In this document: piece after piece, positions 42,794 to 44,309 of the stretch | Position numbering within the stretch: the stretch's first letter is position 1 | How the letters are laid out: the number at the start of each line of letters is the position of its first letter | Position numbers and translations under genes: made by a program | Assembly: GCA_021432655.1 (NCBI GenBank) | Contig: MU271237.1 | Location: 15,132 to 79,131 of the forward strand | Source of the DNA: Atractiella rhizophila | Taxonomy: Eukaryota | Reading direction: 5' to 3' | Length of the DNA stretch: 64,000 bases | The notes under the pieces: model-generated | The model's input: the letters and a program-made list of their open reading frames with translations, nothing else | Told to the model about the DNA's origin: nothing | Database searches by the model: none

Positions 42794-44309
42794 TCACTTC
42801 TCCCTAGTGAACTTGAAGGGCACGATCTCACCATTGACGACCTTAGTGGCGAAGTCACTGTCGTTCGGGATCGGATTCTCCTCCCTCTTCACTTTCTCTT
42901 CCTTCTGCAAGCTCCTCCTCCTCATCTTCCTCTCCCCACTGCTCAGGGGAGCCTTCACTCCTCCAACCCCAGCGAGTGACCGTCTCTCCGCTTCCGTGCG
43001 TTCAGCCAGGATGGCGTTCACTGCTCCATTAGGTGATTCATAAGTCCAGGAGAAGGGGCATGGTGGGAAGAGACGACGCACGCTCGGCTTCGTCGATGGG
43101 AACTTGACGCTTGGAGACTATTTTGCATCATTGAGAATGGTTGGAGGAGAGCGAAAGGAGGACGACTCACAGGGTACAATCTCGCCGTTGACGACTTTGG
43201 TAGCGAAGTCCGAATCATTAGGGATCGGGTTCTCCTGCCTCTTTTCCTTCTTGACTGTTTAACAATCAGTCAGGCTTTTAGGAAGAATACAATACGAATC
43301 AAATGACGAACAAGGCACAATTTCGCCGTTCACGACTTTGGTGGGGAAGTCAGAGTCGTTCGGAATGGGGTTCTCCTGCCTCTTCTCTTTGATGACTGTG
43401 TATCAACCAGTCAGTACTGGAGCAAGACAGACTTTGAGACGACGAACAAGGCACGATCTCTCCATTCACTACTTTGGTAGGAAAGTCCGAATCATTCGGG
43501 ATCGGGTTCTCCTGCCTCTTCTCCTTCTTGACTGTTTAAGAATCAGTCGGGCTTTGAGGAAGAATACGAATCAAAGGACGAACAGGGCACGATCTCTCCG
43601 TTCACTACTTTCGTAGGAAAGTCCGAGTCATTAGGGATCGGGTTCTCCTGCCTCTTCTCCTTCTTGACTGTTTATAAAGGGGTTAGGTCTTGAGAAAGAA
43701 CATGAGTCCAAAGACGAACAAGGCACAATCTCTCCGTTCACTACTTTTGTGGGAAAGTCCGAATCATTAGGGATCGGGTTCTCCTGTCTCTTTTCCTTCT
43801 TGACTGTCCATCATCCACCAGTCAGTTAACGACAGAGAGGCAGAGACGTAGAAAGACCAACAAGGTACGATCTCTCCATTCACTACTTTTGTAGGAAAGT
43901 CGGAATCATTTGGGATCGGATTCTCCTGCCTCTTTTCCTTCTTGACTATTCATCCACTGCCAGTCAATATGCGACGAAGCGGTAAGCGTCAGAAACACGA
44001 ACAAGGCACGATTTCTCCATTCACTACTTTTGTGGGAAAGTCAGAATCATTTGGGATCGGATTCTCCTGTCTCTCTTCCAACACAACGTCCGAATCAACA
44101 ATCGCCACCCTTCGAACCTTCGTCCTCCTTCCCCTCTTCGCCTTCTTCCCGGACGACCCAAAGGCAGTGATGACGCCGTTGACGGATTTGGTGGCGAAGT
44201 CGCTGTCGTTAGGGAGCGGATTGAGTCCTTGTTCTTGCGGTTGGGGGACGGGGAGGGAGAAGATTTGGAGTGGGAGGAGAGCGAGGGGGAGGAGGAGTTG
44301 GATGTGCAT
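42794..44309 (-). CDS. Secreted Kex2-processed repeat protein (peptide precursor), ~357 aa, 9 exons, 9 core repeats
   Basis: Signal peptide MHIQLLLPLALLPLQIFS/LP. Exons 44309-44003, 43945-43862, 43803-43720, 43667-43584, 43531-43448, 43395-43312, 43254-43171, 43117-43082, 43020-42794 splice via GT-AG into one 1074-nt frame. Confidence 0.88.

Follow-up and report, generated by a model that had tools for sequence, protein, structure and literature searches.

We describe a gene in a 64-kb stretch of DNA (64,000 nucleotides (nt) of contig MU271237.1, hereafter called the window) from Atractiella rhizophila, a root endophyte of the Pucciniomycotina. The gene lies on the minus strand, has nine exons and extends from an ATG at 44309 to a TGA stop codon at 42796-42794. 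We assign it with good confidence as the gene for a secreted Kex2-processed repeat protein (KEP), because near-identical cores that are parted by dibasic sites stand behind a hydrophobic N-terminus. After splicing, the reading frame has 1074 nt, i.e. 357 codons and the stop, and the predicted product of 357 amino acids (aa) consists of the hydrophobic N-terminus and nine 23-residue cores with KKEKR spacers. Six of these cores occupy an exon of their own, each exactly 84 nt long. Judged by sequence similarity, the precursor is related to the family of the Coprinopsis cinerea protein KEP 497993. The gene adds a new, currently misannotated member to a peptide-precursor family that is already known. 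Its modular structure is unusually tidy, but it does not represent a system of a new kind.

Exon structure and transcript evidence

An earlier note on this DNA had claimed six successive exons of exactly 84 nt with phase-1 introns of 52-58 nt around them, each exon encoding one spacer and one core. A scan of the minus strand for AG, 84 nt and GT returned exactly six open units, which together with the joints found in transcript contigs confirms the first claim, and translation of the six units confirms the second. In that note the feature was given as 43171..44003; the upper limit, 44003, is the final base of exon 1, and the lower limit, 43171, is where the last of the six 84-nt exons ends. 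The array was also detected by Tandem Repeats Finder (TRF), with a period of 136 nt, 6.5 copies and 77% matches, and by a second repeat search, with 7 copies at a spacing of 136-142 nt. The repeat motif was found nowhere else within the window.

The eight introns are, in order, 57, 58, 52, 52, 52, 57, 53 and 61 nt long. All of them have GT..AG ends and are in phase 1, so that a codon is split after its first base, and a CTRAY-like motif was seen by eye 13-25 nt upstream of the AG in each. At the introns flanking the 84-nt exons the split codon is T/TC, which encodes Phe; since exon 9 reads P-F-K without interruption, the Phe codon split at the other junctions is confirmed. Retention of any single intron results in a stop or a frameshift.

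The gene model was compared with sequencing runs. A run search over a 1.7-kb stretch gave 24 runs with 22-46% of the sampled words, and four of them were examined as contigs (X19, X1, X15 and X2). X15 is recorded as RNA-Seq of a root metagenome, and X19, X1 and X2 are unlabelled; their contigs that skip introns can, however, derive only from spliced RNA. For seven of the eight introns, one or more of the four runs contain the exact joint; CT..AC on the plus strand corresponds to GT..AG on the gene strand. Introns 1 (43946..44002) and 2 (43804..43861) are removed at the joints 43945->44003 and 43803->43862, both in X19, X15 and X2. Intron 3 (43668..43719) is removed at 43667->43720 in X15, intron 5 (43396..43447) at 43395->43448 in X19, X1 and X15, and intron 6 (43255..43311) at 43254->43312 in X19. 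The joints of introns 7 (43118..43170) and 8 (43021..43081) occur in all four runs, and exons 7, 8 and 9 lie together on single contigs in X1, X15 and X2. The remaining intron 4 (43532..43583) is bridged in X1 by the joint 43531->43586, in which two letters stand between the two sides; one of them departs from the window, as a synonymous C>T at 43585 on the gene strand. A loose end of X19 at this intron continues with the start of the next exon. All eight introns are thus bridged at the predicted borders by contigs, the bridge of intron 4 having one deviating letter beside the border.

On the minus strand, exon 1 (44003..44309, 307 nt) contains the start codon, the hydrophobic N-terminus (likely a signal peptide), a diverged core 1 (NPLPNDSDFATKSVNGVITAF), a basic spacer and core 2. 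It is supported by 100% identity to residues 1-102 of NCBI record P0001 and by contig cover up to 44400. The 84-nt exons follow with one spacer and one core each: exon 2 (43862..43945; spacer KKEKR, core 3), exon 3 (43720..43803; core 4), exon 4 (43584..43667; core 5), exon 5 (43448..43531; core 6), exon 6 (43312..43395; spacer IKEKR, core 7) and exon 7 (43171..43254; core 8, an FATK variant). Exon 6 is the most diverged copy at synonymous sites. Exon 8 (43082..43117) has 36 nt and encodes SKR-QVPIDEAE, and exon 9 (42794..43020) encodes a long basic spacer ending in KR, core 9 (EENPIPNDSDFATKVVNGEIVPF), the tail KFTREK and the stop TGA.

The deposited record P0001 is the 'hypothetical protein BT69DRAFT_37826 [Atractiella rhizophila]' of 199 aa. 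It shares introns 1-3 and then runs from exon 4 into intron 4, where it ends with the tail CSSFDSYSSSKPD; it is cut short at 199 aa because the model reads into this intron. As a result it ends after five cores and is without four cores, exon 8 and exon 9, all of which are supported by spliced contigs. The KEP surveys use predicted proteomes, and hence arrays that are split by many small introns may be undercounted or missed.

Two observations on the contigs concern sequence variation. At 43585 (minus strand), the second-last base of exon 4, the contigs of X1, X2 and X19 have T where the window has C (CCC>CCT), and this difference is either a polymorphism, an assembly error or the result of contigs of a neighbouring exon being placed here. 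In X19, a second letter occurs at 8 places between 42845 and 44261, with about 16-57% of the depth there, and because of these second letters we conclude that the X19 sample contains two haplotypes or strains of the precursor gene.

The predicted precursor and its processing

The cores have the consensus (Q/E)ENPIPNDSDF[P/A]TKVVNGEIVPF, with a diverged first copy, and each 84-nt exon translates to (F)KKEKR-QENPIPNDSDFPTKVVNGEIVP(F). The 28 encoded residues are the same in four of these exons; of the other two, one carries K>I in its spacer and the other P>A in its core. KR stands immediately before the next core in seven of the eight spacers; the spacer ahead of core 2 ends in ER and has KR and RR further upstream. 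Gln is the first residue after the basic site in 7 of the 9 cores; the exceptions are core 9, which starts with Glu, and core 1, which comes after the signal region. Residues 1-18 form a hydrophobic stretch (Kyte-Doolittle values of 1.2-2.4 in the first 14 windows of 9 residues) and are followed by a polar Pro/Gln stretch, which makes an endoplasmic reticulum (ER) signal peptide at the N-terminus likely. The core peptides are acidic, with isoelectric points (pI) of 4.1-4.7.

An N-D-S sequon is present in every core (e.g. 44050-44042), at which the peptides could be N-glycosylated. It is not kept in most of the relatives described below, of which P0009 has N-T-T at the matching place.

A processing scheme can be modelled on the Coprinopsis relative and on the yeast alpha-factor. 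The 357-aa precursor would enter the ER via its N-terminal signal, a Kex2-type protease would cut after the KR (or R) preceding each core, a Kex1-type carboxypeptidase would remove the C-terminal basic residues, and the N-terminal Gln would be converted to pyroglutamate. From each mRNA as many as nine linear, acidic peptides would then be released, each about 23-26 residues long (QENPIPNDSDFPTKVVNGEIVPF, with KKE or without it). By analogy with the Coprinopsis relative, the peptide is probably a signal or a factor that acts on other organisms.

Other types of product were considered. The outer architecture of a signal peptide and Kex2-separated repeats is alike in precursors of heavily modified or cyclised peptides of the ustiloxin/dikaritin type, a group of peptides that are made on ribosomes and modified after translation (RiPPs), as described in the relevant sections of PMC7329392. 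Nevertheless, we consider such a product very unlikely here. The window gives no sign of further modification: among its 115 neighbouring open reading frame (ORF) pieces from about 100-115 aa upwards, none matches DUF3328/UstYa, tyrosinase, P450, methyltransferase or prolyl oligopeptidase. The core is without Tyr, Trp and Cys, whereas in ustiloxin/dikaritin-type cores the aromatic Tyr serves cross-linking. Also, the Coprinopsis relative gives linear peptides with pyroglutamate as the only modification in the sections of PMC9769878 on its products, and DUF3328 neighbours are given for only 6.1% of basidiomycete KEPs in the statistics of PMC7329392.

On the other hand, the gene might encode an unprocessed cell-surface repeat protein, or peptides bound to the wall in the manner of the repellent Rep1 of Ustilago, rather than a diffusible signal. 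Rep1 of Ustilago maydis is itself a KEP from a basidiomycete, and its peptides exert their effect on the wall of the hyphae, according to the passages on it in PMC6339444, and the sequon in each core would also suit a surface protein. However, the cores are short, have an acidic pI of about 4 and show no amphipathic pattern by eye, and the homologous Coprinopsis peptides were extracted free, as stated in the part of PMC9769878 on their isolation. A surface or wall function thus appears improbable to us, and a processed, secreted peptide is the preferred product.

Divergence among the repeat copies

The claims that the differences between the exons are mostly synonymous and that the introns have diverged both hold. 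With 28 columns for each codon position, the numbers of variable columns among the six 84-nt exons are 1, 1 and 22 at positions 1, 2 and 3, and the binomial P for at least 22 of the 24 variable columns falling on third positions is 4e-9. The codons quoted as an example, TTT CCT ACA AAA GTA versus TTC CCC ACC AAA GTC, are those of exon 2 and exon 6. By the Nei-Gojobori method, the 15 exon pairs have a mean proportion of synonymous differences (pS) of 0.61 (0.30-1.07) and a mean proportion of non-synonymous differences (pN) of 0.016 (0-0.047), which gives a pN/pS of about 0.03. Each of the six pairs formed by exons 2-5 shows 5-9 silent differences, with zero replacement differences. The pairwise identity of introns 1-6 is 56-84% with a mean of 64.5%, about equal to the mean identity of 61% at third codon positions.

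A comparison between the runs and the window points the same way. Among 39 listed places of difference, 6 are non-coding, 26 synonymous and 7 non-synonymous, and of the last, four are in the last spacer, two are near the N-terminus and one (D>E) is in a core. From the pN/pS of about 0.03, which is far from 1, and the few core replacements between runs, purifying selection on the peptide, as proposed in the earlier note, is supported and is strong; the introns and silent sites have drifted at a similar pace.

The proposal that the array grew by tandem duplication of exon plus intron is supported as well, because the exon size and the intron phase are uniform and some of the introns are still alike. 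The copies are old. Three intron pairs stand above the null of shuffled introns (54 +/- 4%, maximum 66%): introns 4 and 6 with 84%, introns 3 and 4 with 71%, and introns 1 and 2 with 68%. Unequal crossing-over would have duplicated a unit of one exon and one intron (136-142 nt) several times, long ago; afterwards the peptide would have been held constant by selection while introns and silent sites moved to near saturation.

Alternatively, the copies could be alike through gene conversion or very recent duplication, i.e. concerted evolution, and not through selection. Tandem repeats are prone to conversion, and duplicated caerulein and magainin exons of Xenopus have near-zero divergence in the comparisons given in PMC3731216. 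In the present gene, however, conversion would have homogenised the silent sites and the introns too, and for this reason it is rejected: pS between exon pairs is 0.30-1.07 and the introns are 56-84% identical, against only 0-4.7% difference at replacement sites. That the silent differences are assembly errors is argued against by the RNA contigs, which are at least 99% identical to the window in X19. We regard concerted evolution as extremely improbable and retain purifying selection on old copies. With nine copies, saturated silent sites and a near-invariant peptide, the gene provides a clean natural read-out of the residues that matter.

Relatives in other fungi

In a phmmer search of 1.84 billion proteins, there were 9 non-self matches at E <= 0.001. 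Five of these (P0005 and P0007-P0010; E values of 5e-5 to 9e-4) are short repeat proteins of fungal type, the units of which read ..N..PAE.PTK..NG.I.P[YF].KR. Profile searches added P0011-P0015. The named relatives are from Somion occarium (Agaricomycetes, P0009) and Mrakia frigida (Tremellomycetes, P0007). A signal-like N-terminus similar to that of the Atractiella protein is found in P0005, P0007, P0008, P0009, P0011 and P0012. BLASTP of P0001 against P0009 gave E = 3e-9, and hhalign of a nine-member profile built without Atractiella against P0001 gave a probability of 97.5% and E = 7.7e-12. A search for longer homologues returned only P0001 itself.

Two profile searches returned the same 8 proteins each among 8000 scored candidates, and C. 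cinerea 497993 was not returned among them. The link of the relatives to 497993 was made by a by-eye comparison with the sequence printed in the supplement of PMC9769878. In the sections of that paper on this protein, the 497993 peptides pyro-QIPAELPTKSINGNIEPY(K) and pyro-QVPVDEPA were found by mass spectrometry and were lost in the knockout; the peptide is described as highly conserved in agaricomycetes; the knockout was without a phenotype and the synthetic peptides were without antibacterial activity.

Several points weigh against the assignment to the KEPs and to this family. The similarity of single units is weak: with a hidden Markov model (HMM) of the 21-residue unit made from other members, the nine cores score 8.6-12.5 bits each, and four unrelated segments of the plus strand score like cores. 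Repeats also inflate whole-protein similarity scores, and the best non-self match, P0002 (E 2.2e-15, 42% identity, the same period of 28-29 residues), has a recorded model without a signal peptide. No Pfam family matches the gene pieces or P0001. The signal peptide was called solely from hydropathy and by eye, which is a weak test, and processing, secretion and pyroglutamate in Atractiella are predicted by analogy with the Coprinopsis relative and the yeast alpha-factor. Finally, the whole transcript is on no single contig, so that the nine-core isoform is assembled from pieces.

P0002 has five 29-residue units (REAPIPNPSKAPGKVVGGSVGTRSKRGSRP), which have PIPN and KVV.G in common with the Atractiella cores, and six METAAVDQEKKR units upstream; it may be a mis-modelled relative. 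Other candidates were rejected. P0003, P0004 and P0006 are other repeat proteins that have no dibasic sites between units or have a different motif. A metagenome scan with P0001 gave 186 pattern matches and one tblastn match (L001), a false one at a bacterial ExbD/TonB-type locus sharing 'KEKRQENP'. In the ESM Atlas the best score was 0.87 and an alpha-factor precursor cluster (MF_alpha_N) had 0.81; both are below 0.9 and were kept as leads only. The Pfam matches obtained for the relatives have 0 passing stretches and are artefacts of the repeats.

Provided that the homology is real, the 497993 family spans Agaricomycetes, Tremellomycetes (Mrakia) and Pucciniomycotina (Atractiella), and it would be among the older conserved secreted peptides of Basidiomycota. 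A root endophyte would also be a new setting in which to look for the function of the family, and spliced contigs are present in the root RNA-Seq run X15.

Comparison with known precursors

The closest known system is C. cinerea KEP 497993 with its agaricomycete homologues (Vogt et al. 2022, PMC9769878), to which the Atractiella protein is linked through the relatives P0009, P0005 and P0010. Both have a signal peptide (predicted in Atractiella) and cores that are repeated after KR/RR; they share P.E.PTK..NG.I.P[YF]K as the core motif and a Gln right after the cleavage site. Both also have a second short unit, the QVPIDEAE behind KR in exon 8 resembling by eye the QVPVDEPA of the second Coprinopsis peptide. 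On the other hand, Atractiella belongs to a different subphylum (Pucciniomycotina), its core is longer by an NDSD insert and has Phe for Tyr, and it has nine near-identical cores where Coprinopsis has alternating unit types. In Atractiella six cores are each in their own exon, whereas for 497993 the main text of PMC9769878 brings up introns a single time, where complementary DNA (cDNA) served to clone intron-less sequences.

KEPs in general, such as the yeast alpha-factor precursor, Ustilago Rep1 and the ustiloxin-type precursors, are secreted precursors with many peptide copies and repeats at dibasic Kex2 sites, as outlined in the descriptive parts of PMC6339444 and PMC7329392, and the Atractiella protein agrees with this architecture. 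It differs in being without Ste13 X-Ala/X-Pro dipeptides directly behind KR and, when compared to the ustiloxin type, without a DUF3328 neighbour among the ORF pieces mentioned above.

For the exon arrangement, the caerulein and magainin genes of Xenopus laevis are alike, since a peptide-encoding exon was tandemly duplicated there to give a multi-copy precursor, and the sections on these genes propose that the tandem exons raise the peptide yield per transcript (Roelants et al. 2013, PMC3731216). This is an animal system with an unrelated peptide, and its exons, as compared in that source, have near-zero divergence (recent origin or conversion), whereas in Atractiella the silent sites are near saturation and the protein is constant. 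The earlier note had set the gene against classic precursors that carry their repeats within a continuous exon. This contrast fits the examples which that note had in view, but it is not general, as the frog genes described in PMC3731216 have tandem peptide exons.

Our literature searches turned up no fungal KEP gene that was described as having a single repeat in each exon. The terms exon, intron and splic- have 0 occurrences in the main texts of the two KEP surveys (PMC6339444, PMC7329392), Atractiella is absent from the text supplements of both, and the Coprinopsis motif has 0 occurrences in their supplements. As basidiomycete genes are intron-rich, this silence may merely reflect that nobody has looked.

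Exon skipping and peptide dose

The earlier note had also suggested that any exon could be skipped without a frameshift, which would allow control of the peptide dose by splicing. Its first part is correct, as all six 84-nt exons are phase 1-1 and each can be removed in frame. The array could accordingly be read as a regulatory device, in which the number of copies per mRNA is set by exon skipping, or the precursor is truncated by intron retention. There are some signs of this kind. The first six introns start with GTTCGT (five, among them intron 1) or GTTGGT (intron 2), while introns 7 and 8 start with GTGAGT and GTGCGT, and the deposited model ends inside intron 4. The joint 43667->44003 was seen in X1 (depth 19) and in X19, where it has a depth of 3367 against 4675 for the normal joint of exons 1 and 2. 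The depth figures of X19 (10^3-10^5) were given no weight as a ranking of expression, and uncovered parts bear no interpretation. Further skipping-like joints are 43395->43586 in X2, and 43804->44000 and 43807->44003 in X19 with depths of 3.6 and 7.

Nevertheless, every skipping-like joint has just 19-29 letters on its shorter side. The first 34 letters are common to exons 4 and 5, and exon 2 has one letter different within its first 20. If contigs were built from 31-letter words, a contig that has the A of exon 1 at -11 together with G at +11 would have a length of exactly 20+20 letters, as is observed. X19 is mixed at 8 other places, as described above. In view of the short sides, the near-identical exon starts and the mixed X19 sample, the joints can be read as allelic, and skipping is no more likely than an allelic A/G variant of exon 2. 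Contigs, moreover, are no measure of isoform numbers. We therefore think the reading of the array as a regulatory device unlikely, and likewise the more specific proposal that Atractiella tunes the peptide copies per mRNA by skipping symmetric exons or retaining frame-ending introns. The symmetric exons make dose-by-splicing directly testable. If it were true, the dose could differ between free-living growth and root colonisation, and this would be the first fungal secreted-peptide gene with a dose set by splicing, in a peptide family of sufficient age to be common to Pucciniomycotina and Agaricomycotina.

Other features of the window

The neighbours of the precursor gene are ordinary genes, among them those for a formin, a fungal-type kinase, a ubiquitin hydrolase, an MFS transporter and a cyclin. 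ORF pieces of an MFS transporter (45403-47454, minus strand) stand immediately upstream of the precursor and share its strand.

Three pairs of stretches, each at least 300 nt long, are 100% identical: 26869-27168 and 34259-34558, 26005-26304 and 27755-28054, and 32877-33176 and 40082-40381. Through one of these pairs, a formin FH2 fragment (40038-40901) comes to lie within a ubiquitin-hydrolase gene, between its UCH and DUSP parts. The identical pairs either arose by very recent segmental duplication or are artefacts of the assembly. An F-box-like ORF is overlapped by a tandem duplication of about 2 kb (21228-22339 and 23230-24347), with 90-96% identity.

A dispersed or tandem repeat family at 27-2619 and 11487-14290 has four copies of an ORF piece. 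Its units are spaced by about 2.1 kb, and a second copy of the pair, with 87-95% identity, is found at a distance of 11.5 kb. The family has a weak chance match to the KEP unit HMM; the matches at 318, 2446, 11938 and 14055 (plus strand) are dispersed repeat copies and were rejected as KEP cores. Finally, a copia-type retrotransposon at 58552-63494 (minus strand) has an open frame of 1257 aa with a gag zinc knuckle, an integrase and RVT_2.

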